Below, piece after piece: positions 1,214-33,017 of a stretch of DNA of 64,000 nt (position 1 is its first letter; each line of letters opens with the position of its first letter). The notes under the pieces were generated by a model. It saw only the letters and a list, made by a program, of their open reading frames with translations. It was not told the DNA's origin and ran no database searches. The position numbers and the translations under genes were made by a program. The stretch comes from a bacterium (GTDB lineage Bacteria; SAR324; JACQKK01): the NCBI GenBank assembly GCA_035266845.1, contig DATFMP010000022.1, positions 13,550-77,549 on the forward strand, given 5' to 3'.

Positions 1214-3688
1214 GTGCCGATCGCTCCGTCACCGCTTCCCGCTTCGTCCTCCCGCCCATTCCGGACGCTGAGCCGGGCCGTGCTGCTGGTAGCCGCGGCG
1301 CTGCTGCTGGCGCCCGCGGCCGGGCTGGCGCAGAAGGTGCCGCCCTCGCTGCTGCGGCAGGAGGCAGCGCTGAAGCTGCCCCAGGCCGCGGGGGCCGTGG
1401 CCATCAGCGCGGATGAATCCATGCTGGCCGCAGCCTTGCCGGCGGGCCGGGGCCGCTGGCGCGTGCAACTGTACGACCGCCCCAGCCACGGCAGGCTGGG
1501 CCTGATCGAGGCCAAGGTGGGCGCCGACCCGCGCCTGCGCTTCTCCCCCGTGAGCGACCTGCTGCTGGTGGCGGGCAGCGATGCGCTGCAGTTGTGGGAG
1601 CTGCCCATCGGGCCCATGGAGCCCAATAAGCCGCTCGGCCCCGAACACCGCCGCTGGGAGGTGAAGCTCTCTGAGCCGGCCGGCCAGGTGCGCTTCGGCA
1701 CGCCGCCGGACATGGTGTACTGGAGCAAGGGCGCGGCGCTGTATCGCCGCAGCGTGCAGACGGGCGTGCCCTTCGACGGCAAGCCACTGTGGGAGCCATT
1801 GCACGACTCCCAACCGATCACGGACTTCGCCTTCGATCCCCAGAGCGCGCTGCTGGCACTGGTCTATCGCCAGAGCAAGGCCATCGGCCTGCTGGACCTG
1901 AACCACGCGCAACTGCTGCGCAGCCTGCAGGGGCACCGCTTCCCGGTGGTCGCGGCGCGCTTTTCCGATCAGCGGCCGCTGCTCTCCCTGGATGCCGGCA
2001 ACGACCTGATCCAGTGGCAGAACAATGCGCAGCCCGTGGCCACGATGTTCCTGGATCAGGTTCCGTCGGACTTTCACGCAGCCGGCTTCACGGCGCTGGG
2101 CGATCACCACCTGCTGCTGGAAGCGCGGGATGGCCGCGCGCTGGCCATCGAGGAGCGCACCGCGCGGCCTGTGGCGGAACTGCGGGCGGACGGCCCGCAG
2201 CGCATCGCGGTCAGCCCCACCGGGCGCTACGTGCTGGCGGCGGAAGGTCAGATGCTGCGCATCTATGGCTTCGCCCAGCCCAGCTCGCCGCTGGCCTACG
2301 TGCGGCACCTGCGGCGGCTGAAGGCCTATGACATGGCGCAGAGCTACGTGCGCCTGATGGATGACCGCGGCATCTCTCCGCAACTTCGTGCGGACCTGCT
2401 CAACGAGGCCAGCCGCGAGCCTCCGGGCCAGGAGCTGCAGGCGGCCCTGGCGCGCATGAAGGAGGCCGTGCAGGAGAGCGACGCAGACCGCATCCGCTAC
2501 TGGGCCGAGCAGGTGCTGAGCCTACAGCCGGGGCAGCCGGACGCCAGCGCCGCCCTGCGCGCCCTGCGCGAGCAGCAGGATGCGCGGACCCTGGACCAGG
2601 CCCGCGACGCCTACCAGGTGGGGCAGTACCGCGTGGCGATCTCGCTGCTCTCCAACCAGATCCAGGACGACAGCCGCTTCTATCCCGACGCGTTGGAGCT
2701 GATCCGGCAGGCCGAGGCCCGCCGCTCAGTGGAAACCGCGCTCATCCAGGCCCGCGAGAAGCTGAACCTGAGCGACTTCCCGGCCGCGGAGGCGCTGGTG
2801 CAGGAGGCGCTGCGCAAGGAGCCGGGAAACCGGGCCGCGCAGGCCCTGCAGGACGAGATCGACGACCGCTCCGGGGCCACCGAACGCCAAATCAAGGCGG
2901 CCTTGATCGGCCTCAGCATCGCCTCGCTGCTGGTGGGCTTCGTGGCTATGCGCTACCGGCGCCGGCTTGGCCCGCTGATGCGCAAACTGCGCCTGGACGA
3001 GCAGGATGAGCGATCGGGGCCGTTCGCCCGGGGCGCGGCACGGCCCCATGCCGAGCCGCACCGCGCGGCCGAGCCTCGCCAGCCCGAACCGGAGCGTCCA
3101 CCGCCCCGGCCCCATGCCGCCACGGCGGCGCGCCGCAAGGTGATCGAGGCGCTCATCAAGGAGACGGACGAGCGCATCCAGCGCCTGCGCATGGCGGACC
3201 ACTATGGGCAGCACACCGCGCGCCTGATGGAACTGGAAGCCGAGCTGAACGCCATCCAGCGCCGGCTGGTGGATCCCTCCGTCGAACTGGGGCCACTGCA
3301 CAACCGTCTTCGCGCCATCGACGCCCAAGTGCGGAGCCTGCGCATCGAGCCCCGCCGCGGCCCGCAGCAGGAGGAGCGGCAGCGGCACGCCGGACAAGCG
3401 GGCACCGGGCAGGCGGCCCTACCGGGGGGCCAGAACGGCGAGCCGACGCACTACGAAGTGCTGGAGCTCACGCCAGAGGCCTCCCTGGAGCAGATCAAGG
3501 CCGCCTATCACAAGCTGCTCAAGCAGTATCACCCGGACCTGCACAACGCTTCCCAGTTCGCGTGGGTGCGGGCCGAATCCGAGCGCATGAGCCGCCGCAT
3601 CGCCCTGGCCTACCAAGTGCTGAGCGACGACGCGGCCCGCGCGCGCTATGATCACGAACTGCGCAATCGCAAGGGACCTGGCCGATGA
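1214..3688 (+). CDS. large membrane-anchored J-domain protein: signal/anchor peptide, periplasmic beta-propeller-like and TPR-like region, one TM helix, coiled coil, C-terminal J-domain
   Basis: Signal-like segment RAVLLVAAALLLAPAAGLA-QK; repeated LxxWxL / hydrophobic-strand blocks; TM AALIGLSIASLLVGFVAMRYRRR; C-terminal HYEVLELTPEASLEQIKAAYHKLLKQYHPDL (HPD present). The start is uncertain: GTG at 1214 or 1280 is possible and there is no ATG in frame after the trmB stop. The stop overlaps the yicC start (ATGA). Confidence 0.7.
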   Translation: MPIAPSPLPASSSRPFRTLSRAVLLVAAALLLAPAAGLAQKVPPSLLRQEAALKLPQAAGAVAISADESMLAAALPAGRGRWRVQLYDRPSHGRLGLIEAKVGADPRLRFSPVSDLLLVAGSDALQLWELPIGPMEPNKPLGPEHRRWEVKLSEPAGQVRFGTPPDMVYWSKGAALYRRSVQTGVPFDGKPLWEPLHDSQPITDFAFDPQSALLALVYRQSKAIGLLDLNHAQLLRSLQGHRFPVVAARFSDQRPLLSLDAGNDLIQWQNNAQPVATMFLDQVPSDFHAAGFTALGDHHLLLEARDGRALAIEERTARPVAELRADGPQRIAVSPTGRYVLAAEGQMLRIYGFAQPSSPLAYVRHLRRLKAYDMAQSYVRLMDDRGISPQLRADLLNEASREPPGQELQAALARMKEAVQESDADRIRYWAEQVLSLQPGQPDASAALRALREQQDARTLDQARDAYQVGQYRVAISLLSNQIQDDSRFYPDALELIRQAEARRSVETALIQAREKLNLSDFPAAEALVQEALRKEPGNRAAQALQDEIDDRSGATERQIKAALIGLSIASLLVGFVAMRYRRRLGPLMRKLRLDEQDERSGPFARGAARPHAEPHRAAEPRQPEPERPPPRPHAATAARRKVIEALIKETDERIQRLRMADHYGQHTARLMELEAELNAIQRRLVDPSVELGPLHNRLRAIDAQVRSLRIEPRRGPQQEERQRHAGQAGTGQAALPGGQNGEPTHYEVLELTPEASLEQIKAAYHKLLKQYHPDLHNASQFAWVRAESERMSRRIALAYQVLSDDAARARYDHELRNRKGPGR

Positions 3689-4563
3689 TTCGTTCCATGA
3701 CTGGCTTTGGCCAGGCAGAAACCTCCTCCGGCGGCTGGCGCTGCACGGCGGAACTGCGCTCGGTGAACGGGCGCTATCTCGATGTCCGCCTGCGGCTGCC
3801 GTCCGGGCTCACGCAACTGGAAGAGCCCCTGCGCAAGCAGATCAAGGCGGTCTGCGAGCGAGGCAAGATCGACGGCACCATCAACCTTTCGGCCGAGGAG
3901 GGCGGCCGGCCCACGTTGGCCATCAACCGGCCGCTGCTGGAAGGCTATCGCGCCGTGTTGGACGAGATTGCGGAGGTGCTGGGCCAGCCCGTGCGCGTGA
4001 CTCTGAGCGACCTGCTGGCCAACCGGGAACTGATCCAGCAGCAGTCCTGGGAGCAGCAGGCCGAACAGGTGCAGGCCCTCGTGCACGAGACCTTGCAGGC
4101 CGCCCTGGCCGGCCTGCTGACCATGCGCGAGACGGAGGGCAACGCGCTCAAGGCCACGCTGCTGGAGCATGCGGCCAACCTGGAGCGCATGGTGGACGAG
4201 GCCAAGCCGCTCACCGCCGATGTGCCCGCACAGTACGCGCGGCGCCTGCGGGAGAACCTGGCGCGACTTTCCGACGGCCCCATGCCCGCGGAGGATCGCA
4301 TCCTGCAAGAGATTTCGCTGTTCGCCGACCGCTGCGACGTCACCGAGGAGTTCGCGCGGCTGTACACGCACCTGGAGCACCTGCGTCAACTGCTGGAGCA
4401 GGGCGGCCCGGTTGGGCGCAAGTTCGAGTTCCTGCTGCAGGAACTGAATCGCGAGACGAACACGCTGGGCACCAAGAGCAGCGAAGCGCAGGTGAGTGCG
4501 CTCATCGTGGAGATGAAGTCCGAGATCGAGAAGCTGCGCGAGCAGGTGCAGAACATCGAATAG
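3685..4563 (+). CDS. yicC: YicC-family stress-induced protein (RNase YicC)
   Basis: Protein begins MIRSMTGFGQAE and ends with a DUF1732-like C-terminus LQELNRETNTLGTKS; ~292 aa. Confidence 0.9.
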   Translation: MIRSMTGFGQAETSSGGWRCTAELRSVNGRYLDVRLRLPSGLTQLEEPLRKQIKAVCERGKIDGTINLSAEEGGRPTLAINRPLLEGYRAVLDEIAEVLGQPVRVTLSDLLANRELIQQQSWEQQAEQVQALVHETLQAALAGLLTMRETEGNALKATLLEHAANLERMVDEAKPLTADVPAQYARRLRENLARLSDGPMPAEDRILQEISLFADRCDVTEEFARLYTHLEHLRQLLEQGGPVGRKFEFLLQELNRETNTLGTKSSEAQVSALIVEMKSEIEKLREQVQNIE

Positions 4564-7885: not shown

Positions 7886-8088
7886 GCGATCCGCATCGCA
7901 TCGCCGTCGACGCTCTCCTGGTAGACTTCGCGCATCACCTCGACCACCACGATCTCCTCGATGGAGCGCGCCTTGTTCGACAGGATGTCGAAGGCCCGCG
8001 TCATCGGCACGTCGTGATCGATCAGTTGCTCCAACTGCTTCCCGATCCTGCGAACGGTTTGGCGGATCATAAGCATCTCCCTCATCAA
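7828..8088 (-). CDS. hypothetical small protein (~80 aa), convergent with and overlapping the relA 3' end
   Basis: Protein-like composition (MIRQTVRRIGKQLEQLIDHDVPMTRAFDILSNKARSIEEIVVVEVMREVYQ) and GC3-rich codons, unlike surrounding spurious frames. I do not recognise the family. Confidence 0.4.
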   Translation of the reverse strand: MMREMLMIRQTVRRIGKQLEQLIDHDVPMTRAFDILSNKARSIEEIVVVEVMREVYQESVDGDAMRIAYADSSTRSARMPAMAFSR

Positions 8089-8316
8089 CGCGACTCCTCT
8101 CGTCCATGATTATGAGCCTCGGCCAGCCGCAGCCGGCCGGATGATAGACGTTGACGCCACCCTTTCATGCAGGATCGGGGCCACACGCCACAAAGCGGTG
8201 GCAGAGCTGCCTGGGGAGGGGTGAGGGAAAGTGTTGGGGCTGCGGTGCGCGACCCAGAACAGGCCGCGCCACGGAGTGTCCGGCGGAGCGGCCGGGAAAG
8301 CCGCCCTGCTGGGGCA

Positions 8317-8691
8317 CTAGCTCTGCTTGAACTTGGAGAGGTCGACCACGAAGCGCTCGTGCGTGCCGTCGCCGATGGTGTCCTCGCCGTGGGTCACCTT
8401 GACCTCGAACAACAGCTTGCGGCGGTCGCGCTCCAGCAGCTTGCAGGCGATCTTCACGTCCTTGCCGATGGGCACGGCGGCGCGGTGCCAGATGTGCACC
8501 ATGGTGCCCACCGTGCTCTCGTTGTCGTCCAGGTGGGGCTGAACCGATTCCAGACAGGTTTGCTCCATCAGTCCGATCATGGACGGCGTGGAGAGGACGC
8601 CCGGGCCGGGGCCCAGGTGCGCCACGCCCATGGCCGGCGTGGTGGTCACGGTCTTCTCATGGGCGATGCCCGGGGCCAGCGAATCCTTCAT
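8317..8691 (-). CDS. hotdog-fold acyl-CoA thioesterase (fluoroacetyl-CoA thioesterase-like)
   Basis: GIAHEKTVTTTPAMGVAHLGPG...VLSTPSMIGLMEQTC, typical of the YbgC/FlK hotdog family; 124 aa. Confidence 0.8.
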   Translation of the reverse strand: MKDSLAPGIAHEKTVTTTPAMGVAHLGPGPGVLSTPSMIGLMEQTCLESVQPHLDDNESTVGTMVHIWHRAAVPIGKDVKIACKLLERDRRKLLFEVKVTHGEDTIGDGTHERFVVDLSKFKQS

Positions 8692-8945
8692 GGCGGGTGC
8701 GTGCTCCAGCGCTAGGGGTGGTTGCCCATGCCGAGTGCGGGGCAGGGGCCGAAGATCACGGTTTTTGCATTCCCCTTCAGCATCCGCAACGTGCCTCGGG
8801 GGGCCAGGGCCGGCGTGGCCGATCGTGCCAGCGCCACCACCCTACCCGATGTGACGCGGCCCGCGCCAGCGAAGGTGCGGGTGCAGGAGGGGGCTGCCTC
8901 CGGTGGCGGAGCCGGACGCCCCGGCACGTGGGAAAGGAGCCCACC

Positions 8946-9135
8946 CATGGAAGACAGAACCTTCGTCAATCGGCCGTTCCTGCGGGTGTACTTCGAGTGC
9001 TGCAGCGTGTACCAGCGCATCTATCGCGATCCGCACGGCCATGCCTACTCAGGCCGCTGCCCGCGCTGTCTGCGCCCGATCCGCTTCAAGGTGGGGCCCA
9101 ACGGGACGCCCGCACGCGACTTCACCGTACGCTAG
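8946..9135 (+). CDS. small zinc-ribbon protein (63 aa, CC...CxxC)
   Basis: MEDRTFVNRPFLRVYFECCSVYQRIYRDPHGHAYSGRCPRCLRPIRFKV. It has a coding-like composition and sits divergent from the thioesterase. Confidence 0.4.
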
Positions 9136-9205
9136 TGCGGTGTGCCGCAAGTAAGTTCAAGACTCGCCGGCATGTCTGGCACTGTCAGGGGCACCGCCCC
9201 TGACC

Positions 9206-9301
9206 ACCCCGCCAAGAGCCCTTGGAACCCGTTTTCGCGGCAGTGGCTGGATCGCCAGCCACTGCCGCCCAAACAGGGGGTTTGGGGGAACGTGTTCCCC
9301 C
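9206..9301. repeat. intergenic palindromic element, copy 1: 12-bp perfect palindrome GGCAGTGGCTGG-ATCG-CCAGCCACTGCC followed by conserved CAGGGGGTTTGGGGGAAC-GT-GTTCCCCC hairpin
   Basis: Shares a 28-nt core with the reverse strand of 23669-23700; both copies lie in convergent gene junctions. Confidence 0.5.
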
Positions 9302-9332
9302 GAATTCTTCCCCGCATCTTTGGAACGCCGCA

Positions 9333-10814
9333 CTAGACGGCGGTATTCCCGGCTGCGGCGGTGACCAGGGCCCGGAAGCGCTCGCCGCGCACCTTGTAGT
9401 TGGGGAACATATCGAAGCTGGCGCAGGCGGGGCTGAACAGCAGCACACCGCCCCCCGCCACGGCCTGGCGCGCCGCGGCGAACGCCGCCTCCAGGCTCTC
9501 GGCGCGCACCACTGGCGGTGTGGCCCGACCCAGGCGCGCGGCCGCCGCGGCCAGCTCCGCCGCAAGGCGCGGCGCCGTGGTGCCGATCAGCACCAGCCGG
9601 TGCAGCGTGGGATGCCGGCACAGCGCCTCGGCTAGCGGCGCGAAGTCCGCGTGCTTCTCCGAGCCCCCGGCGATGAGCGCCAGCGGCACGTCCTCGAAGG
9701 CCGAGAGCGCCCCCAGGGTGGCATCCGGCCGCGTGGCGTAGGAATCGTTGTAGCAGCGCACGCCATCCAGCTCCCCCACCGGCTCCAGGCGGTGCGGCAG
9801 ACCGCCGAAAGCCGCGATGGCTGCGGCCGCCGCGTCCAGCTCCGCGCCCAGCGCCTCCGCCGCCAGAAAGGCCGCCGCGGCGTTCTCCAGGTTGAAGGCG
9901 CCCGGCAGCGCCAAGTGCTCCAGCGGCTCCAGCCGCTCCGACCGGCCGCCCCGGTAGCGGTACACGCGTCCGTCCGCCACGCCGATGCCGTCCGTGACCG
10001 GACCACCGCGGCTGAAGGCCAGCGCGCCCGGCAGGCGCGCTCCCACTACCTCGCAACTCCCGGCGCTGTCCGCGCAGTAGATGACGCGCTGGGCGACCGC
10101 CCCGGCCTCGTCCAGCCCTGCCAGCAGGCCTCGTTTGGCGGCGCGGTACTCGGTCACGTCGCGGTGCCAGTCCAGGTGCTCGCTGGTGGTGCGCAACACG
10201 ACGGCCACTTCCGGCTTGCGTCCCTCCAGCCCCATAAGCTGGAAGCTGGACAGCTCCAGCACGGTCACCGTCTCGGGCGTCAGCTCGTCCAGCACGGCCA
10301 AGGGATTGAGCCCGATATTGCCCGCCGCGCGGCAGGGGACGCCGGCCCGCAGCAGCGCCGCCTCGATCAGGCTCACGGTGGTACCCTTGCCCAGCGTGCC
10401 GGTCACGCCCGCCACAGGGCCCGGGCAGGCCGCCAGGAACAGCGCCGTGGCGGAGGTGATCCGCGCTCCCGCAACCCGCGCGGCCGCCAGCGCGGGCTGA
10501 TCCGGCCGCACGCCCGGGCTGCGCACCACGGTGCCGCAGGCCGCCAGCGCCGTGCGCCAGTCGCCCTCTCCGTGTACGGGCAGGTCGGCCAGCGCCGGGT
10601 CTTCGTCCGCCGCAGCGGGGGTCAGGGCGCGGTCGAACACAGCCAGTTCTTCCACGCCATGGGCCCGCAGGAAGCGCAGCGACGCCCGGCCCTCCACGCC
10701 GTAGCCCACGATGCCCACCGGCCGCGGCAGCTCCGCGACCAGTTCCGCCGCCGGGCGCACCGCCTGGCCGGAAGCCCGACTAAGCCGCCGCTGTCCGGGC
10801 ATAGCCCTCCGCAT
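9333..10814 (-). CDS. murD: UDP-N-acetylmuramoylalanine--D-glutamate ligase (Mur ligase family)
   Basis: N-terminal Rossmann VGIVGYGVEG; P-loop VTGTLGKGTT; PHRLE; C-terminal SPACASFDMFPNYKVRGERF, characteristic of MurD. Confidence 0.85.
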   Translation of the reverse strand: MRRAMPGQRRLSRASGQAVRPAAELVAELPRPVGIVGYGVEGRASLRFLRAHGVEELAVFDRALTPAAADEDPALADLPVHGEGDWRTALAACGTVVRSPGVRPDQPALAAARVAGARITSATALFLAACPGPVAGVTGTLGKGTTVSLIEAALLRAGVPCRAAGNIGLNPLAVLDELTPETVTVLELSSFQLMGLEGRKPEVAVVLRTTSEHLDWHRDVTEYRAAKRGLLAGLDEAGAVAQRVIYCADSAGSCEVVGARLPGALAFSRGGPVTDGIGVADGRVYRYRGGRSERLEPLEHLALPGAFNLENAAAAFLAAEALGAELDAAAAAIAAFGGLPHRLEPVGELDGVRCYNDSYATRPDATLGALSAFEDVPLALIAGGSEKHADFAPLAEALCRHPTLHRLVLIGTTAPRLAAELAAAAARLGRATPPVVRAESLEAAFAAARQAVAGGGVLLFSPACASFDMFPNYKVRGERFRALVTAAAGNTAV

Positions 10815-11946
10815 CGGCTAGGCGCGCCACGGCAGGCCGCAACGCCTCCGGCACGAAGCCGGGCCTGGCGTGGATGTACTCGGGGTACAGGGTGAGGCGC
10901 TCGCGCAGGGTGTAGCCCACCTCCGCGCTGCGCCGGGCCAGCTCGGCGATCTGCGGCCAGGGCGCCTCGGGATTGATGTGGTCCGGCGTGACCGGCGAGA
11001 CGCCGCCCCAGTCGTTGATGCCCGCCAGCAGCAGCAGCGGGTAGCTCTCCGGCGACAGATTGGGCGGTGCCTGCAGGTTCATCTCGCCCCCCAGCAGCAG
11101 CCGCGCCACGGCGATGGTGCGCAGCAGGTCGGTCAGGGGCGGGTCGGGCCAGTCCGCCATGGGAATGCCCGCCTTGGCGCGGAAGTTCTGTACGATTACC
11201 TCCTGGATGTGCCCGTAGCGTGCGTGCAGGTCACGCACGGTGAGCAGCGTCTGCACACGCTCGGCGGGCGTCTCGCCGATGCCGATCAGCAGGCCGGTGG
11301 TGAAGGGGAAGCGCAGCTCGCCCGCGAAGCGCAGGTTGGCGATGCGGGCGCCGGGCGCCTTGTCCGGGGCGTGTGCGTGGGGCATGCCGGGAGCCCGCAA
11401 CCGGGGCGTGAGGTTCTCCAGCATGATGCCCATGCTGCCGCTGGTGCCGCGCAGCGCGGCCATCTCGCGGCGGCTCAGCGTGCCCGGGTTGGGGTGCGGC
11501 AGCAGTCCGGTCTCCGCCAGCACTGCGCGGCACATTTCCGCCAGGTAGCCGGTGGTGCTCTCGAAGCCCAGTCCGCGCAGCTCCGTCGCCACCTGCGCGA
11601 AGCGCACCTCAGGCTTGTCGCCCAGGCTGAACAGCGCCTCCTTGCAGCCCACCGCCGCCCCGGCCCGCGCGATGGCCAGTACCTCGTCGGGCGTCAGGTA
11701 GCGGGCGCCGGGCTGGCCGGGGTCGCGCTTGAAGGTGCAGTAGCCGCAGTCGTCGCGGCAGTAGGTGGTGAGCGGGATGAACACCTTGCGCGAGTAAGTC
11801 ACCACGCGCCCCTTGTGCGCCTCGCGCAGCTCGGCGGCGGCCTGCATCAACTCCAGCAGGGCCGCGCCCTGGGCCCCAAGCAGTGCCGTGGCCTCCTCGG
11901 CCGTGAGGCCGCCCTGCTGGGCTCGGGTCAGCAGCTCGGTGGGCAT
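10780..11946 (-). CDS. cofG: radical SAM 7,8-didemethyl-8-hydroxy-5-deazariboflavin (FO) synthase subunit CofG / FbiC N-terminal half homolog
   Basis: VTYSRKVFIPLTTYCRDDCGYCTF matches the CofG/FbiC CxxxCxxC region almost exactly; 388 aa; overlaps the murD start by 35 nt. Confidence 0.75.
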   Translation of the reverse strand: MPTELLTRAQQGGLTAEEATALLGAQGAALLELMQAAAELREAHKGRVVTYSRKVFIPLTTYCRDDCGYCTFKRDPGQPGARYLTPDEVLAIARAGAAVGCKEALFSLGDKPEVRFAQVATELRGLGFESTTGYLAEMCRAVLAETGLLPHPNPGTLSRREMAALRGTSGSMGIMLENLTPRLRAPGMPHAHAPDKAPGARIANLRFAGELRFPFTTGLLIGIGETPAERVQTLLTVRDLHARYGHIQEVIVQNFRAKAGIPMADWPDPPLTDLLRTIAVARLLLGGEMNLQAPPNLSPESYPLLLLAGINDWGGVSPVTPDHINPEAPWPQIAELARRSAEVGYTLRERLTLYPEYIHARPGFVPEALRPAVARLADAEGYARTAAA

Positions 11947-12082
11947 GGCGGTCCGTGGCGACGATCGGTGGCGGGCAGCATCCGCAGATCTCTCGGATCA
12001 CATCGATTCAGACGACCAGCAGACACCGCCGTCCGCCTGGATGCAAGCGGCGCTAACCCCGCAGCCGGCCGGCACACCCGCC

Positions 12083-13789
12083 TCAATCCTGCCGGATCGG
12101 GCGCCCGATGCGCCGCTCCACGATGCGCGTCACGGCCGAGGCATCGTCCTCGCCGTAGCCCGCCGCCAGGGCTTCCTCCAGCAGCCCACGCGCCGCGTCG
12201 TGGATGGGCGTGGGCACGCCCGTGCCCGCGAAGAAGGCCTTGGCGAGCTGGCTGTCCTTGTGCGCCAGCTTCAGCTTGAAGCGCGGCGAGAAGTCGCCCT
12301 TGATGATGGTGGGCACCTTGCGGTCGAAGTAGTTACCGAAGGCCATGCCCCCCCCGTTGCGCACCACCTCGTAGAAGGTCTGCAGGTTCACGCCGTTCTG
12401 TGCGCACAGCGCCAGGGCCTCGGCCACGGCGGCGTAGTTCACGGCACCCAGGGCGTTGTGCAGCAGCTTGACCTTGTTGGCCGTGGCGGCCGGGCCCACG
12501 TAGATGTACTTGCGGCCCGCCAGTTCCAGGTACGGCGTGATCCGATCCAGGTGCGCGCGCTGGCCGCCCAGCATGTAGAACACTTGCCCCGCCTCCGCCT
12601 GCGGCTTGGAGCCCAGCATGGGCCCCGTGAAGTGGTGGACGCCCTTGGCGCGCAGCTCGGCATCCAGCGCGTCCGTGAACTCCGGGCTGACCGTGGACAG
12701 GTCGCAGGTCACCGTGCCCGCGCGCAACACCGGCATCATGCCGGCCTCGCCCCGGAACACGGCATTCACCGCCGAGTCGTCGGGCAGGCAGGTCAGGATC
12801 ACCTGGCAGCGCTCGGCCAGGGCGCGCGGGGATTCCGCCACTTCCACGTTGGCCTGCTTCGCCGCCTCGCGCATGGCCGCGGGGTTCGCATCGTAGACCA
12901 GCACGGACTTGCCCGACTTCGCCAGGTTCAGCGCCTGGGGCAGGCCCATCGTGCCCAGCCCAATGAAGCCCACCCGTTCCTCTGCGACCGGGGGCTTGCG
13001 GGCCGCCATGCGCCCCGTGATGCCGCGCATGGGCAGGGCTCGCTTGGCAGGCGCCCGCTTGGGCGCGGCGGCCCGGACGCTTGCCTTGGGCGCCGCCTTG
13101 GCCCCTGCTGTGCGCTTGGGTGCGGCTTTGGCCGTGGGGCGCTTGGCCGTCGTTGCCCGCTTGGGGGCCGCTTTCGTCACAGTGGCTCGCTTGGGTGCAG
13201 CTTTGGCGGCAGTGGCACGCTTGGCCGGGGGTTTTGCGGCACCGCGCTTGGCCGCCGTGGCACGCGCGACGGGCTTCGCGGCAGCCTTGGCAGGGGTGCC
13301 GCGCTTGGGCGCAGCCTTGGCGGCCTTAACAGCAGGGCCTTTGGGCGCCGCCTTGGTGGCTGTGGCCCGCTTCGGTGCCGCTTTGGCGGCAGAGACCCGC
13401 TTGGCCGCGGGTTTTGCAGCCCCGCGCTTGGCGGTCGTCGCACGCGCGGCGGGCTTCACGGCACCCTTGGCAGGGGTGCCGCGCTTGGGTGTCGTCTTGG
13501 CCGTGGCGCGCTTGGGTGCGGCCTTCGCGGCCGTCCGCTGGGTCGCCGCCTTGGCGGTGGCTCGTTTGGGCACCGCCTTGGCGATGGCGGGCTTGCGTGC
13601 TGGCGCAGCCTTGCTCGCTGCCGTCCGTTTCGCCGCCGGCTTGCGGGCAGGAGCGGCCTTGCTCGCCGTGCGCTTGGCTGCAGGCTTCGCCGCGGACTTG
13701 CGGGCCGCAGGTTTTCGGGCAGCCGGTTTGGCTGCGGCAGGCCGCGTCTTGCGGTCCGCATTGGTGCGGGCTTTCGAGTTGGTAGCCAC
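12083..13789 (-). CDS. fusion protein: N-terminal ~250 aa K/A/P-rich histone-H1-like (AlgP/Hc1-like) repeat domain plus C-terminal NAD(P)-dependent beta-hydroxyacid dehydrogenase (HIBADH/6PGDH family)
   Basis: C-terminal FIGLGTMGLPQALNL, GTVTCDLSTVSP and LAHKDSQLA motifs. The N-terminus is AAKPAAKR/AAPKRAT repeats in frame with no stop. A GTG start at 13789 is preceded by a GAGGAG Shine-Dalgarno 7 nt upstream. Confidence 0.8.
   Translation of the reverse strand: MATNSKARTNADRKTRPAAAKPAARKPAARKSAAKPAAKRTASKAAPARKPAAKRTAASKAAPARKPAIAKAVPKRATAKAATQRTAAKAAPKRATAKTTPKRGTPAKGAVKPAARATTAKRGAAKPAAKRVSAAKAAPKRATATKAAPKGPAVKAAKAAPKRGTPAKAAAKPVARATAAKRGAAKPPAKRATAAKAAPKRATVTKAAPKRATTAKRPTAKAAPKRTAGAKAAPKASVRAAAPKRAPAKRALPMRGITGRMAARKPPVAEERVGFIGLGTMGLPQALNLAKSGKSVLVYDANPAAMREAAKQANVEVAESPRALAERCQVILTCLPDDSAVNAVFRGEAGMMPVLRAGTVTCDLSTVSPEFTDALDAELRAKGVHHFTGPMLGSKPQAEAGQVFYMLGGQRAHLDRITPYLELAGRKYIYVGPAATANKVKLLHNALGAVNYAAVAEALALCAQNGVNLQTFYEVVRNGGGMAFGNYFDRKVPTIIKGDFSPRFKLKLAHKDSQLAKAFFAGTGVPTPIHDAARGLLEEALAAGYGEDDASAVTRIVERRIGRPIRQD
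13200..13505 (-). repeat. ~180 bp tandem direct repeat (2 units, ~85% identical) encoding the repeated K/A/P-rich segment
   Basis: 13201-13325 aligns to 13381-13505 (ctttggcggcag...gccttggcaggggtgccgcgcttggg). Confidence 0.6.
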
Positions 13790-13850
13790 GTCCGCTTCTC
13801 CTCAAGGTACGCAGGGTCCACTGTCCCGGCACCACCACGGGCACGCAGGA

Positions 13851-14627
13851 CTAGCGGAACAGGTCCATCTCCGGGGCGCGGATGAGCGCCTGGCCGCCCG
13901 CGCCCGCGCTGGCCTGACCCTGAGGCCAGGGCCAGCCACGGATCACGGCCGCGGGCACGCGCCCGGTTTTGCCGCAGACGAGGTCCGCAGCGCAGGCCAG
14001 CTCGTCCGCCACGGCGATAATGGTCGCGTGCAGGGTGCGCCCATCCACGTCCGGCGATTCGCGATAGTCCACCAGCGGCGCCAGCCCGGCCACGCCCAGG
14101 GCCACCTGGGTGAGACCCACACGCCAGGGCCGCCCGAAGGTATCCGCCACGATCACGGCCACGTCCGCCCCCGTGCCCGCGCGCAGGGCCTCGCGCAGGG
14201 CACGCGCCGAACGGTCGGAGTCCTCCGGCAGCAGGATCGCCACCTCGCTGCCGTCGCCCGCGCCGGCGTTGGAGAGGTCCACACCAGCGTTGGCGCAGAT
14301 AAAGCCATGGTGCGTCTCGGTGATCAGCACGCCCCGTTCCATGCGCACCACGCGGCGGCTCTCCCGCAGCACCAGCTCGATCAGCCGCGGGTCCTTGCCC
14401 CAGCGCTGGGCCCAGGTGCGGGCGTGGGGCGAGGGCTCCACGCCGGCCAGGGCCACCCGCGAGCCTTCGGCTTTGGAAACAACCTTCTGCGCAATCACCA
14501 GCACGTCGCCATCGGCCAGGACGGGCCCCCGATCGCGCAGGACAGCCAGCAGGAGGCCTCCCAGGTCGTCCCCGGGGTGAATCTCCGGCAGGCCCTCCAC
14601 GGGATGGACGGTCACGGGTGCGGTCAT
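13851..14627 (-). CDS. cofE: coenzyme F420-0:L-glutamate ligase
   Basis: GDVLVIAQKVVSKAEGS and ITETHHGFICANAGVD motifs; 258 aa from the ATG at 14627. The rest of the 715 aa ORF is antisense to trxA/truA. Confidence 0.85.
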   Translation of the reverse strand: MTAPVTVHPVEGLPEIHPGDDLGGLLLAVLRDRGPVLADGDVLVIAQKVVSKAEGSRVALAGVEPSPHARTWAQRWGKDPRLIELVLRESRRVVRMERGVLITETHHGFICANAGVDLSNAGAGDGSEVAILLPEDSDRSARALREALRAGTGADVAVIVADTFGRPWRVGLTQVALGVAGLAPLVDYRESPDVDGRTLHATIIAVADELACAADLVCGKTGRVPAAVIRGWPWPQGQASAGAGGQALIRAPEMDLFR

Positions 14628-14849
14628 GAAGCTCCGGCTCTCGGCGGGGCGCGCTCCCGCCATCCTAAGCATCGCGGGCCGGCCCCGCAACGGGACCCTT
14701 GCCCGGCTCGGTTGCCTGCCTCCCGGTGCGCCAGTATACTGCTCTTTCGGAACCCTGCGCTGCGGCGCGTGGGGGCCGGCGCCCGGGATGGCGCCGCCTC
14801 GCGGCGTCCGCGGCTCCGTCAGTTGCATTCCTAATGGGGTGAACGACTT

Positions 14850-15170
14850 ATGGCAAGCGAAACGGTGGTCAACCTGACCGACGACACGTTCGATTCCGGC
14901 ATCAAGTCCGGCCTGACCCTGGTGGATTTCTGGGCGGAGTGGTGCGCGCCCTGCAAGGCGCTCTCGCCCGCCATCGAGCAGCTCGCGGACGAATTCGGCG
15001 AGAAGCTGCGCGTGGCCAAGGTGGATATCGACTCCAACCCGGGCATCCCTGGCCGCTTCGGCATCCGCGGCATTCCCACCGTGATCCTGTTCAAGGACGG
15101 CACCCAGGTGGACATGTTCGTGGGCAACAGCCCGCAGAAAATCCGCGAGATGGTCGAGCGCGCCGTCTAG
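14850..15170 (+). CDS. trxA: thioredoxin
   Basis: WAEWCAPCK active site; 106 aa. Confidence 0.95.
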   Translation: MASETVVNLTDDTFDSGIKSGLTLVDFWAEWCAPCKALSPAIEQLADEFGEKLRVAKVDIDSNPGIPGRFGIRGIPTVILFKDGTQVDMFVGNSPQKIREMVERAV

Positions 15171-15302
15171 GCCCCTGCCGGGTGGGGCGGCGCTGCCCGC
15201 CTCTCGCGGCATCCGCCGGGCTGGCGTCGACCGGCCCCGGCGCAGGCCTCCTTCTCGCCCCCAGGGCGCGCCCGGTCTTGCACGCGGAGGGCCGGTCCGC
15301 CT

Positions 15303-16193
15303 GTGTACGGCCCGCGACCCGCACCCACCATGCACTCCCCTGACCCCAGCGATAGCGCCCCCGACGCACACGCGGACCAACCGACGTCGCACGAGCCGGC
15401 CACACCGCTTCAGAACTACGCCCTGCTGCTGGCGTACAATGGCAGCGGCTACCAGGGCTGGCAGATCCAGCCCCACGGGCCCAGCGTGCAGGGGGCGCTG
15501 GAGGACGCGCTGCACACGATCACCCGGCGCACAGTGAAGGTCTATGGCTCCGGCCGCACGGACGCCGGGGTGCACGCGCTGAACCAGGTGGCCAACGTCC
15601 GCCTGCCGCCGGGGCAGGACTTGCACAAGCTGCGCGCGAGCCTCAACGGATTGCTGGGGCCGAGCGTCTCCGTCAAGGCCGTGGTGCCGGTGGCCGAGCG
15701 CTTCCACGCGCGGCACAGCGCCCGCGGCAAACACTATCGCTACCAGCTCTTCAACCGGCCTTTTCCGCCCGTATTCGGGCGCCACCGCGCCTGGTGGATC
15801 AAGCTGCCGCTGGACGTGCCGGCCATGCGGGCGGCTGCGGCGCACCTGATCGGGGAGCACGACTTTTCGGCATTCCGCGCCAAGCAGTGCGCGGCACGGC
15901 ATCCCGTGCGCACCCTGCATCGACTGGAACTGCTGGAGCGCGACTGGCCGGGCTGCACGCTCTCCATCGAGCTGGAGGCCAACGGCTTCCTGCAGCACAT
16001 GGCCCGAATCGTGACGGGCACACTGGTGGAAGTGGGGCTAGGCAAGCTGCCCCCGGAGGCCGTGGAGCGCATCCTGGCCGGCCGGCAACGGGAGCAGGCC
16101 CCTGCCACCGCCCCTCCCGGCGGGCTGCACCTGCTGCGCGTGTACTACGACCTGGCGGAATTCCCGGAGCTGCGCGCCTTCACGGAAGCCTGA
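15303..16193 (+). CDS. truA: tRNA pseudouridine(38-40) synthase
   Basis: YNGSGYQGWQIQ...GSGRTDAGVHAL catalytic Asp motif; the start could be the internal ATG near 15330. Confidence 0.9.
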   Translation: MYGPRPAPTMHSPDPSDSAPDAHADQPTSHEPATPLQNYALLLAYNGSGYQGWQIQPHGPSVQGALEDALHTITRRTVKVYGSGRTDAGVHALNQVANVRLPPGQDLHKLRASLNGLLGPSVSVKAVVPVAERFHARHSARGKHYRYQLFNRPFPPVFGRHRAWWIKLPLDVPAMRAAAAHLIGEHDFSAFRAKQCAARHPVRTLHRLELLERDWPGCTLSIELEANGFLQHMARIVTGTLVEVGLGKLPPEAVERILAGRQREQAPATAPPGGLHLLRVYYDLAEFPELRAFTEA

Positions 16194-29831: not shown

Positions 29832-30467
29832 TCAGGCCACCTTGTCGGGCCACTCGCACTCAGCCGCGATGACGCAGTGAGCGCAGTCCGGCTTGCGCGC
29901 CTTGCACACGTAGCGGCCGTGCAGGATCAGGTAGTGGTGCGCGTGGTGCAGGTGGCGCTTGGGCACGATGCGCAGCAGGCCCTCCTCCACCTCACGCACG
30001 GTCTTGCCCGGCGCCAAGCCCGTGCGATTGCCCAGCCGAAACACGTGGGTGTCCACGGCGATAGTAGGGTGCCCGAAGGCCACGTTGAGGATCACATTGG
30101 CCGTCTTGCGGCCCACCCCCGGCAGCGCCTCCAGCGCCTCGCGGTGCGGCGGGACCTCGCCACCGTGGCGCTCCAGCAACAGGCGGCAGGTGGCGATGAT
30201 GTTGCGGGCCTTGGTGGGCGCCAGGCCGATGGTGCGGATGTGGGAGAGCAGGCCCGCCTCGCCCAGCTTCAGCAGGGCGTCCGGCGTGCCATAGCGCGGA
30301 AACAGGTTAGCCGTGGCGGCATTGACCGACTTGTCCGTGGCCTGCGCACTGAGGATCACGGCCACCAGCAGCTCGAAGGGGGAGCGGTAGACCAACTCCG
30401 AGCGCGGCTCGGGTCCCGTGGCCGCCAGCTTGTCGAAGAGGCGCGCGGCCTTGGCCCGGGTCACTTG
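29832..30467 (-). CDS. nth: endonuclease III (DNA glycosylase/AP lyase)
   Basis: HhH-GPD LPGVGRKTANVILN; 4Fe-4S cluster CxxxxxxCxxCxxxxxC (CKARKPDCAHCVIAAEC); probable GTG start near 30467. Confidence 0.85.
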   Translation of the reverse strand, partial: QVTRAKAARLFDKLAATGPEPRSELVYRSPFELLVAVILSAQATDKSVNAATANLFPRYGTPDALLKLGEAGLLSHIRTIGLAPTKARNIIATCRLLLERHGGEVPPHREALEALPGVGRKTANVILNVAFGHPTIAVDTHVFRLGNRTGLAPGKTVREVEEGLLRIVPKRHLHHAHHYLILHGRYVCKARKPDCAHCVIAAECEWPDKVA

Positions 30468-31874
30468 GCGCTCTGCGGCTCTTCCAGGAAGGCGTGGTGG
30501 ATAGCCTTGAGGCCCACCTCCGCGTCCTCCTCCTTGATGACGCAGGAGATGTTGATCTCCGAGGCGCCCTGCGAAATCATCTCGATGTTCACGCCCGCCT
30601 CGCCGAGGCTGGTAAACATGCGCCCAGCGGTGCCCTGAGCGTACTTCATGCCCTCGCCCACCATGGCCAGGATGGCCCGGCCGGGGGTGATGTCCACCTG
30701 ACCCAGCTCCTGCAGCGAGGCCATGGCCTTCTCCAACTCCTCGCGGCGATCCACCGTGAAGGACAGGCTCACCTCGGAGGTGGCGATGAGATCCACCACG
30801 ACCCCGTTCTCCGCCAGCACCTCGAACACCCGCGCCATGAAGCCGTAGGCGTTGTACATGCGGTTGGAGGTGATGGTGAAGATGGTGATGCCCTTCTTCG
30901 CCGTCACCGCGGTGACCCGCTGGGGCAGCGCCCCGGCCTTGTTGCGGGGCAGGATCACGGTGCCCGGGGCCTCCGGGCGGAACGTGTTCTTGATGCGGAT
31001 GGGCACCTCCGCCGCCACCACGCGCTCCATCGTGAACGGGTGCAGCACCTCCGAGCCGAAGTAGGTCAGCTCGCTGGCCTCCGTGGGCGAGATGCTTGGC
31101 AGCACGCGCGCCGTGGGCACGCGGCGGGGATCGGCCGTGAACACGCCGTCCACCTCCTTCCACACTTGCATCTCCTCCACCTTCTTGCGGCCCAGGCCCG
31201 CGGAGATCAACGCCGCGGTGAAGTCCGTGTAGCCCCGCCCCACCGCCCGCAGCAGGCCGCCCGGCACCATGCCGAAGAAGCCGGTCACCACGGGCACCTC
31301 GTGGTCCTTGGGCGCGCACTGCATGGCCAGCCGCTCCTGCAGGCGCCGGAAGAAGCCCGGGGTCACCTCCGCCTCCTCCTCCGGCACTACATGCGTGAGG
31401 TCCACGAACACCGTGGGCACCGCGCGGTCGCGCAGCACGGACGAGAGCAGGAACGCGCTGAAGCGCTCGCCTGTGGCCATCAGGATGTCCTGGGAGCGAG
31501 GGGAAAGCTCGCGGATCACCTGGATCGCATCCAGGAAGCTGTGCAGCCAGATCAGCTCCGTCTCGATCCAGCGCTCCACCTCCTCGCGCAGTTCCAGCGA
31601 GGCGATGGCCTCGCTCACGGCCCGGCGATGGTTGGCCTCCAGCTTCTCCAGCGGCACCTCAAAGGGCACGCCCTGCACGGCCAACTCACCCGCCTCCAGC
31701 AGCAGGTTGGTGGTGCCCTCGGACTTCACCGTGCTGCTCATGGCCGAGACGACCGCGATCACCTCGTGTTCCTTGCGCGCGTGCTGGATGATCTCCGCCA
31801 CGTTGCGCATGCGCTCACCGGTGCCCACGCTGGTGCCACCAAACTTCTGTACGATCATGCCCATGGATGGTCCT
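30461..31874 (-). CDS. lysC: aspartate kinase (with two C-terminal ACT domains)
   Basis: MGMIVQKFGGTSVG N-terminus; AVVSAM...T; ACT regions; ~470 aa. The rest of the 824 aa ORF is spurious. Confidence 0.9.
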
Positions 31875-32065
31875 TGCTCTCTCGGCCCCACCAGTCCCCT
31901 AAACTGCAATTCTTGACCGATTTTCAGCCTCTTGTACACCTTTTGGCCCCACTTTGGGGCCAATACCGCGTCGCTCTGCACTACTTGACTCATTGAACTA
32001 TCTTGGTACATTGGTACCAATACTGACGATTCGCATCGGTACGACCCCTTTGGTGGAGCGGAAAT

Positions 32066-32794
32066 ATGGCTCAGGCAGCGATGCAAACCCCGGCGCAAGC
32101 GCCGGACGGGCCCGTGGTGGAGCGGGTGCAGACGGGCGTTCGGCTGGAGAAGCGCATGCTCAAGGTGCTGAAAGGCCTCGCCGAGTACCTGGACATCACG
32201 CTGGGCGACCTGCTGGAGGGCGTGGTGCTGCACGCCTTTGCCGGACGCGCACCGTTCAGCGAGGGCACGCGGGCCCGCATCCGGGAGCTGCAGGGGGTCT
32301 ACGGGATGGACTACGGCGTAAAGGCTGCCCACCGCATGCGCGAGGCCGCGGGTGAGCCGCCGGACCCCGCCGAATCGCCCGCGCTGGGCTGGGACGACCT
32401 CAGCGACGCCGGGGTGGCCCACGCCTTCGCCAGCGGGGCGCTGGTCGGGGCGGAGTTCCACCATGCCCACCATGTGCGCGTGGCCTGGGTGCTGCTGCGG
32501 GAGCACGGCCCGGCCGAGGCCTTGCCGCTGATGCGGGCGGGCATCCACCGCATCGCGCAGGCGCATGGCCACCCGGGGCTGTACCACGAGACCATCACCG
32601 CGGCGTACCTGCACCTGATTCACGCAAGTGCGCAGGCGGAGCCGGGTCTGGGCTGGGAACTCTTCCGCGAGCGCCACCCTGCGCTGTTCCAGTGGCCCTC
32701 GGCCCTGCTCGCCGAGCACTACAGTCCGGAGCGGCTGAACGACCCCGACGCCCGCGCCAACTTTCTGCTCCCCGACCGCGCCCCGCTGCCGTAG
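32066..32794 (+). CDS. hypothetical protein with putative N-terminal ribbon-helix-helix-like DNA-binding segment
   Basis: VRLEKRMLKVLKGLAEYLDITLGDLLEGVVLHAF; His-rich C-terminal half; preceded by palindromes in the promoter region. Confidence 0.55.
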   Translation: MAQAAMQTPAQAPDGPVVERVQTGVRLEKRMLKVLKGLAEYLDITLGDLLEGVVLHAFAGRAPFSEGTRARIRELQGVYGMDYGVKAAHRMREAAGEPPDPAESPALGWDDLSDAGVAHAFASGALVGAEFHHAHHVRVAWVLLREHGPAEALPLMRAGIHRIAQAHGHPGLYHETITAAYLHLIHASAQAEPGLGWELFRERHPALFQWPSALLAEHYSPERLNDPDARANFLLPDRAPLP

Positions 32795-32833
32795 AGGCGA
32801 ACGCGGGACGAGGTCATCCGGGGCTCCCAAACA

Positions 32834-32873
32834 GCCAAAAAAGTCCGTTGTGGGGGCCAAAGGCCCCCACAAC
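32834..32873 (-). terminator. intrinsic terminator for the trmH-family transcript (perfect 12-bp stem GTTGTGGGGGCC/GGCCCCCACAAC, followed on the minus strand by TTTTTTGG)
   Basis: Hairpin 32847-32873 plus the A-run 32834-32842 on the plus strand (a T-run on the minus strand). Confidence 0.5.
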
Positions 32874-33017
32874 CCCAGCACATGGGGTCCAGGCTGGTAG
32901 CGCTCCCTTGGGGCCAACTGCCCTTCCAAGTCCAAGCTGTGTCTAAACAGACGTCGCTATAGGCTTCCGCGCGCTTCGAGACGCGGCGGTCGTTCTGCGA
33001 GGTTCTTCAGACACAGC

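Follow-up and report, generated by a model that had tools for sequence, protein, structure and literature searches.

A putatively disordered polycationic tail on a HIBADH-type dehydrogenase encoded between cofE and cofG in a SAR324 bacterium

In a 64,000-nucleotide stretch of DNA from a SAR324 bacterium (GenBank assembly GCA_035266845.1, contig DATFMP010000022.1, positions 13,550 to 77,549), hereafter called the window, a minus-strand open reading frame (ORF) of 568 codons joins a polycationic, low-complexity N-terminal tail to a complete dehydrogenase of the 3-hydroxyisobutyrate dehydrogenase (HIBADH) type. Such tails recur in relatives of a single clade and are absent from other orthologs with the same gene order. 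We consider it very probable that the long form of the protein, tail included, is made. With less assurance, we favour a reading in which this one polypeptide combines a disordered cationic tail with an active beta-hydroxyacid dehydrogenase that would be tethered electrostatically to polyanions. Cationic tails resembling histone H1 are known in bacteria almost only on proteins of DNA, RNA or storage granules, and here one sits on a small-molecule oxidoreductase; our literature searches turned up no other HIBADH-type or comparable metabolic enzyme with such a tail.

Tail and enzyme of the 568-residue protein

The original prediction, made from the sequence of the window, described about 250 residues of K/A/P repeats, including a unit of about 60 residues duplicated through a DNA repeat of about 180 bp, and both features were recovered. 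The tail spans residues 1 to 262 and is rich in A (97 residues, 37%), K (47, 18%), R (30, 11%), P (30, 11%) and T (26, 10%), with a single acidic residue (D/E), a net charge of +76 and a pI of 12. Tandem Repeats Finder (TRF) detected the 180-bp period, whose two 60-aa units agree at 43 of 60 positions, and further periods of 15, 30 and 84 bp, so that all periods in the window are multiples of 3. The dominant unit is AAPKRATxxK, and the motifs KPAA, AAKP and KAAPK occur 6, 5 and 8 times, respectively. In the AlphaFold2 model the tail has a pLDDT of 37-56 and lacks secondary structure, and it is therefore predicted to be disordered.

The same prediction called the tail histone-H1-like, which stands for its composition (K/A/P-rich, strongly basic, disordered repeats) and fails for homology. 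The Pfam HC2 model (PF07382) gave 17.0 bits against a cut-off of 40, the NCBIfam Hc2 model (NF038052) gave 16.2 bits against a cut-off of 135, and phmmer with residues 1-262 alone returned no match at E<=0.001 among 1.84 billion representatives. Since the tail has no detected homologs and misses the Hc2 thresholds, the likeness to H1 is, as far as sequences can tell, one of composition and physics and not of ancestry. The phmmer result also made a homology-based survey of tail partners impossible. A six-frame scan of the window found no second K/A-rich basic segment, and the other fetched loci, about 1 Mb in all, had such segments only in the tail's own homologs.

As predicted, the ORF continues in frame from the repeats into a complete HIBADH-type enzyme, with PF03446 and PF14833 both at full length and no stop codon or frameshift between tail and enzyme. 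The proposed GTG start and its strong GAGGAG Shine-Dalgarno (SD) sequence are present as well, at a spacing of 8 nt and not of 7 nt. Between this GTG and the internal Met of MAARKPPV, the GTG is the best supported start, by its SD and by the comparative evidence given below; a protein starting at MAARKPPV (codon 261) has no entry in the protein collection searched. NCBI PGAP nevertheless uses an internal ATG at codon 254, and its product (HKI97357.1, "NAD(P)-dependent oxidoreductase", 315 aa) omits the tail. Prodigal-type callers differ from PGAP in the start and give the 568-aa form, which is also that of Logan, ENA, GEM and IMG. An assembly artefact is unlikely because independent assemblies contain identical DNA and the identical protein (a Logan contig is 100% identical to the window locus over 3734 nt, and the protein is also in ENA and IMG); together with the recurrence of the architecture in six relatives, this rules out a chimera.

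The remainder of the protein belongs to the beta-hydroxyacid (HIBADH/6-phosphogluconate dehydrogenase type) dehydrogenase family, in an undefined subfamily, and looks catalytically competent. Residue invariance was judged in an alignment of 59 homologs. Within the cofactor motif GFIGLGTMG, G274, F275, G277, L278, G279, M281 and G282 are invariant, I276 is nearly so and T280 is variable; K441, N445, K511 and D512 are invariant too, with K441 aligned to the catalytic Lys of GarR, so that the family motifs GxxGxGxxxKxxxN and KD(L) are present. Residues 270-568 have a pLDDT of 91-98 in the AlphaFold2 model, and Foldseek gave TM-scores of 0.91-0.94 with GarR (1vpd), 2-hydroxymethylglutarate dehydrogenase (3cky), gamma-hydroxybutyrate dehydrogenase (3pef) and HIBADH (9k2j). 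The top sequence match of the enzyme part in the PDB has an E of 1.4e-48.

Like GarR (1VPD, TMt 0.91) and other beta-hydroxyacid dehydrogenases, the window enzyme has a two-domain fold, GxGxMG, a catalytic Lys/Asn pair and a KD motif. It is unlike them in being only 33-38% identical and in its motifs. The substrate motif DAPVSGG with its conserved Ser is absent and TGPMLGS is found instead, with Leu392 at the Ser position and a Ser two residues on; M-L-G-S of this motif is invariant across the subfamily and the preceding P is present in at least 90%. The GGLAGS of known enzymes is likewise replaced by GGGMAFGN. All NCBIfam equivalogs (GarR/GlxR, HIBADH, sulfolactaldehyde reductase, L-threonate dehydrogenase) fell below their cut-offs, the best with 188 bits against 397 (NF008592). 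As is usual in Rossmann folds, the Asp that follows beta-2 (VYD) presumably favours NAD over NADP.

In two contexts that are unrelated to each other, members of this dehydrogenase subfamily have a thioesterase of the hot-dog fold close by, an FlK-type one in the window (8317-8691, minus strand) and a 4HBT_2 one directly downstream of the dehydrogenase in locus L002 (8936-9769). They recall the hydrolase-dehydrogenase pair of valine catabolism and could be a clue to the substrate.

Table 1. Positions in the window of the dehydrogenase gene, its parts and the neighbouring cof and Mur-ligase genes.
Feature	Position	Strand	Details
Dehydrogenase ORF with tail	12083..13789	minus	GTG start, 568 codons/aa
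Stop codon of the ORF	12083..12085	minus	
GTG start codon of the 568-aa ORF	13787..13789	minus	61 nt past cofE stop
Shine-Dalgarno GAGGAG	13798..13803	minus	8 nt 5' of GTG, read from sequence
Polycationic low-complexity N-terminal tail, aa 1-262	13004..13789	minus	composition; AlphaFold2 disorder
Hypervariable N-proximal part of tail, ORF nt 83-345	13445..13707	minus	31/44 mismatches and sole 30-nt in-frame indel vs L007
180-bp (60-aa) tandem duplication, 1.8 copies	13161..13489	minus	Tandem Repeats Finder: 85% matches, no indels
Internal ATG, codon 254	13028..13030	minus	start in NCBI HKI97357.1 (315 aa); SD absent upstream
Internal ATG, codon 261 (MAARKPPV)	13007..13009	minus	SD weak or absent
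NAD(P)-binding Rossmann domain PF03446 (NAD_binding_2), aa 272-432	12494..12976	minus	full length, E 5.9e-37; GFIGLGTMG
All-helical C-terminal domain PF14833 (NAD_binding_11), aa 437-556	12122..12481	minus	full length, E 9e-24; K441, N445, K511-D512
cofE (F420-0:gamma-glutamyl ligase)	13851..14627	minus	PF01996 E 1.9e-69; TIGR01916 263 bits vs 181
cofG (FO synthase radical-SAM subunit)	10780..11946	minus	TIGR03550 442 bits vs 213
murD-like Mur-family ligase	9333..10814	minus	overlaps cofG end; TIGR01087 332 bits vs 212

Distribution, turnover and translation of the tail

A search with the full-length protein gave 13 significant matches among 8000 candidates, with low-complexity words dominating, and the enzyme domain alone was then used. 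This recovered 760 homologs at E<1e-40, nearly all of about 300 aa. All tail-bearing proteins (the window protein, P0002; the protein of locus L088; P0003, P0004, P0005 and P0006) fall in one neighbour-joining clade with a bootstrap of 100. The homolog search proposed in the original prediction as a check thus finds the fusion again in relatives, restricted to one clade, with a tail sequence that can barely be aligned; the strain-level variation in repeat number that it expected is met in a near-identical sister strain, described below, which has one more 30-nt unit.

Several relatives have no tail. Within the same clade, P0015 (locus L089), 81% identical to the window enzyme, lacks it, and only 18 nt separate the cofE stop from its ATG; P0018 (74%) probably has none. 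Tails are also absent from L090 (76%), L091/L092 (70%) and L094 (66%), where the spacer is AT-rich and stop-rich, and from L004 (60%). In scans of genomes and metagenome contigs, none of the matches listed exceeded 54% identity or added a further tail-bearing locus. The tail-bearing loci are those of highest GC (0.70-0.735). A fusion with a neighbouring H1-like gene was ruled out, as tail-less relatives hold an AT-/stop-rich spacer of 18-244 nt or an unrelated insertion at this place. Since same-synteny orthologs (60-81% identical) are tail-less, we read the tail as a derived, lineage-specific addition that arose in place and not by gene fusion. In L091, an AAA_14/DUF4143 ATPase gene lies between cofE and the dehydrogenase on the opposite strand (3004-4476, minus), at the very place that the tail came to occupy in the other clade.

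Judged from alignments, the enzyme is evolving much more slowly than the tail. Between P0005 and P0006, identity falls from 98% in the enzyme to 43% in the tail, and their tails differ in length by 45 aa. In L088 the tail is 344 aa long, and its composition has shifted to A/T/R/S (K 8%, R 18%, T 20%). L007, the sister-strain contig, is 99.9% identical to the window outside the hypervariable part of the tail, and the additional unit that it carries is AAPKRATVSK. This contig ends inside the repeat (its position 1 is at about 13706 of the window), and the adjacent 260 nt are about 88% identical to the window against 99.9% for the other 9.3 kb, which reflects either a true hypervariable segment or assembly noise at the contig end. 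Taken together, these loci provide a well-resolved case of a coding region of 100-350 residues that appears to arise and to turn over fast through in-frame repeat expansion.

Such regions pose a problem for annotation: PGAP drops the tail, another caller prefers an antisense ORF, and contigs break in the repeat. In L088, a relative 85% identical, a gene caller placed a 397-aa antisense "hypothetical" ORF (1621-2814, minus, versus 1772-3694, plus) over the 344-aa A/T/R/S/K tail and left only 288 aa of the dehydrogenase. Protein databases may be losing such tails systematically.

We suggest that the enzyme was the ancestral occupant of the cofE-cofG slot in the SAR324-related lineage, and that in one high-GC sub-clade its ORF gained a 5' extension, which begins at a start codon close behind cofE. 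The extension would have grown, and would still be changing, by in-frame tandem duplication of short units coding for A/K/R/P/T. By analogy with known cationic tails (KPAA repeats in AlgP and PhaF, lysine repeats in actinobacterial HupB, Ku and TopA), the one described here could bind nucleoid DNA, RNA or polyphosphate non-specifically by charge. As solved structures of the family show dimers and tetramers, the holoenzyme would display 2-4 tails, and these would concentrate it on polyanion scaffolds with its chemistry unaltered. An active dehydrogenase with polycationic arms is suggested because the catalytic residues are kept and the enzyme domain is 78-85% identical to that of tail-less orthologs.

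Some observations count against this proposal. A close relative (L089) thrives without a tail, and given the patchy distribution any function of the tail must be dispensable. The differences between the window and L007 in the N-proximal part are spread evenly over codon positions (10:9:12), which could mean that this part is weakly constrained in sequence, or could again be contig-end noise. Several further frames of the GC-rich repeat are open as well, so an open frame by itself is no proof, and NCBI PGAP starts the protein at codon 254. An additional short isoform may also be made from ATG254 or ATG261.

The main alternative is that the tail is translated and has no selected function, being tolerated as neutral in-frame repeat expansion in very GC-rich genomes. 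It would account for the patchiness within one clade, including the absence of a tail in the 81%-identical P0015, for lengths ranging from 0 to 344 aa, for the drift from K-rich to R/T/S-rich composition (L088), for the divergence between P0005 and P0006, for the even substitutions in the hypervariable part and for the presence of tails in the loci of highest GC. Neutral expansion is harder to reconcile with six independent tails that run for hundreds of residues with acidic and bulky hydrophobic side chains almost completely excluded. Although only 32-43% alignable in sequence, these tails have 0-2 acidic residues per 109-344 aa and net charges of +32 to +87 in the frame of the enzyme. AT-rich Lys codons (48 in the window tail) also persist in DNA of 73% GC. 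Moreover, the 180-bp copies differ at 21 sites, 13 of them at third, 5 at second and 3 at first codon positions (binomial p=0.007). All three features point to selection on charge and composition, or at least on composition. We consider a wholly neutral tail unlikely, while giving it real weight.

A second alternative is that the repeat region is not translated, the product being an enzyme of about 315 aa from ATG254 or ATG261 and the 760 nt upstream a leader or intergenic repeat. The PGAP call and the usual family length of about 300 aa fit with it, as does a GC content at third codon positions that is lower in the tail (0.63-0.90) than in the enzyme part (0.90-0.97). The other frames of the repeat are open too; as GC-rich repeats of this kind leave 3-5 of the 6 frames open, we dropped the open frame as proof of coding. 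The start signals argue for the long form. DNA was available for four tail-bearing loci, and in each of them a strong SD and a start codon follow the cofE stop by 21-61 nt, at the head of the tail (GAGGAG-8-GTG in the window, AGGAG-6-ATG in L001, GAGGAGG-7-GTG in L088 and AAGGAGG-7-GTG in L176); both internal ATGs of the window lack an SD of this kind. P0003 (L001) lacks any ATG, GTG or TTG from codon 67 to GFIGLG at codon 163, so at least 96 of its tail residues must be translated to make the enzyme. Where tail and enzyme join, no Met is close by in P0004, P0005, P0006 or the L088 protein. In these four and in P0003, the enzyme could not be made without a tail.

The frame itself is also preserved. 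Repeat periods across the tail loci are almost all multiples of 3, as is the L007 indel (30 nt), and the link in frame to the enzyme is kept despite many indels; the third-position bias of the 180-bp copies points the same way. An untranslated tail would imply a gap of about 850 nt inside the operon, where tail-less relatives have gaps of 18-244 nt. We therefore regard an untranslated repeat as improbable.

Gene neighbourhood and the F420 link

On the strand of the dehydrogenase the genes are ordered cofE, dehydrogenase, cofG, murD-like ligase and FlK-type thioesterase, while thioredoxin (trx) and truA lie upstream in divergent transcription. No intrinsic-terminator-like site was found in 8000-15400, where shuffled sequence has a mean of 2.8, and the one promoter-like match near the cluster is on the opposite strand. 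Across the 64-kb window there are no tRNA genes and no Rfam families at gathering threshold. The identity of the window Tgt is 71% to SAR324, 67% to Lambdaproteobacteria and 64% to Geobacter, and a syntenic ortholog of the dehydrogenase is found in a SAR324 cluster bacterium metagenome-assembled genome (GCA_022566195.1). An affiliation with Burkholderiaceae, taken from the name of a partial homolog (P0036), was ruled out by these two results.

The window shares the order cofE-HIBADH-cofG with L001, L004, L088, L089, L090, L091 and L176, and HIBADH-cofG is seen in L007, L092, L094 and L095. More broadly, the arrangement of trx and cofE-HIBADH-cofG-murD-like is kept in every inspected relative at least 60% identical (L001, L004, L007, L088-L092, L094/L095, L176). 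Outside this lineage, homologs at 31-55% identity (Methylomirabilota, Paenibacillus and others) do not adjoin cof genes; no cofE or cofG was found near the dehydrogenase in 80 genome loci with 31-53%-identical homologs, and P0010 is in another context too. In the window, no cofH, cofC or cofD was found among the ORFs Pfam-scanned at 17-52 kb, so the other F420 genes must be elsewhere, or the pathway must be unusual. A review of F420 has no such dehydrogenase or step in the pathway (PMC8498797), and we found no literature linking HIBADH-type enzymes to F420. Because the flanking housekeeping genes (trx, truA, relA) are equally syntenic, we treat the F420 link as a lead and not as a finding. As a lead, the conserved cofE-HIBADH-cofG-murD-like operon of SAR324-related bacteria bears on F420 biology in an uncultivated phylum, and it may outweigh the tail in consequence.

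A more ambitious version of the tethering proposal can be formulated, in which the tail is an adaptive localisation device that brings an F420-linked step to a polyanionic scaffold (nucleoid, RNA or polyphosphate granule) or grips the oligoglutamate of F420, the operon of SAR324-related bacteria then coding for a form of deazaflavin cofactor biosynthesis not described so far. We consider this combination speculative and distinctly improbable.

The tail could also be specific to F420, capturing the oligo-gamma-glutamyl tail of F420 or its intermediates, or scaffolding CofE and CofG. Throughout the lineage, each locus has the gene between cofE and cofG, and F420 carries a phosphate and an oligoglutamate tail (PMC8498797). 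The same operon slot is, however, filled by tail-less orthologs, and with trx, truA and relA just as syntenic the gene order may reflect relatedness only. Given also that homologs outside the lineage lie away from cof genes and that no tie to F420 was found in the literature, a tail specific to F420 seems very improbable.

The Mur ligase travels with cofE-HIBADH-cofG and not with the dcw cluster, as seen in the window (9333-10814, minus), L001 (5426-6985), L091 (6862-8352) and L094 (2354-3973). It may be a cofactor-tail ligase instead of a housekeeping MurD.

Comparison with known cationic tails and fusions

The closest functional analogues of the tail are AlgP and PhaF together with the lysine-repeat tails of actinobacteria, and the closest architectural analogue of the whole protein is GLYR1/NDF. 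The C-terminal KPAA domain of AlgP binds DNA and is located at polyphosphate granules (PMC9239181), and the disordered KPAA region of PhaF binds RNA/mRNA (PMC12818456). These Pseudomonas proteins share with the window protein long disordered K/A/P-rich cationic tandem repeats (net charge +55 in AlgP, +76 here), a repeat region that is a mutational hot spot, and KPAA/AAKP motifs. The window tail differs in being N-terminal, richer in R and T, and built of 10-aa AAPKRAT-type units and not of KPAA tetrads, so it lacks the dense C-terminal KPAA array of AlgP and PhaF. No sequence homology with them was detected, and its partner is a metabolic oxidoreductase instead of a helical or phasin domain.

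Chlamydia Hc2 also has lysine/alanine-rich repeats, with a copy number that varies among strains (PMC2848022). Its models (PF07382/NF038052) give weak compositional matches to the tails of the window protein and of P0003-P0006, with scores far under the thresholds, and Hc2 is a stand-alone nucleoid protein.

In actinobacteria, lysine-repeat tails strengthen the DNA binding of Ku, HupB and TopA (PMC3553676, PMC5676037, PMC5714199), and the PAKKA repeats of M. smegmatis Ku modulate DNA binding (PMC3553676). As in HupB/HupS, Ku, TopA, DdbA and mycobacterial FtsK (PMC5676037, PMC3553676, PMC5714199, PMC3643593, PMC13277299), the window protein has a lineage-specific cationic low-complexity extension on a conserved globular protein in a high-GC bacterium. 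The partner domains in actinobacteria already act on DNA, whereas here the partner is a small-molecule dehydrogenase in a SAR324-related, proteobacterium-like host. Tail-less orthologs in the same operon slot are natural controls, which could reveal effects of the tail on localisation, condensates and solubility.

In eukaryotes, GLYR1/NDF/N-PAC has a chromatin/DNA-binding module (PWWP plus AT-hook) N-terminal to a HIBADH fold, and its dehydrogenase domain is a close structural match to ours. The dehydrogenase domain of GLYR1 is regarded as non-catalytic. The two architectures are independent inventions: the window enzyme keeps K441 and N445, with no sign of the loss of catalytic residues seen in such pseudo-dehydrogenases (Lys and Asn are invariant), and its putative DNA-binding part is a pure low-complexity tail. 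The second-best structural match (human N-PAC/GLYR1, 2uyy, TMt 0.89) and the nucleosome binding of NDF (PMC6004073) might suggest that the window protein acts mainly on the nucleoid or as a chromatin-type factor, and that its dehydrogenase fold serves for oligomerisation. This is scarcely credible given that the catalytic Lys and Asn and the cofactor motif are invariant and that the enzyme domain, by its identity to tail-less orthologs, is under normal enzymatic constraint.

Two further ORFs of the window have long N-terminal stretches. In the TrmB ORF (132-1172, plus) the domain begins at residue 160 of 346, and the stretch before it looks like an over-extended ORF and not a tail. In the aspartate-kinase-like ORF (30461-32935, minus) the AA_kinase domain begins at residue 360 of 824.

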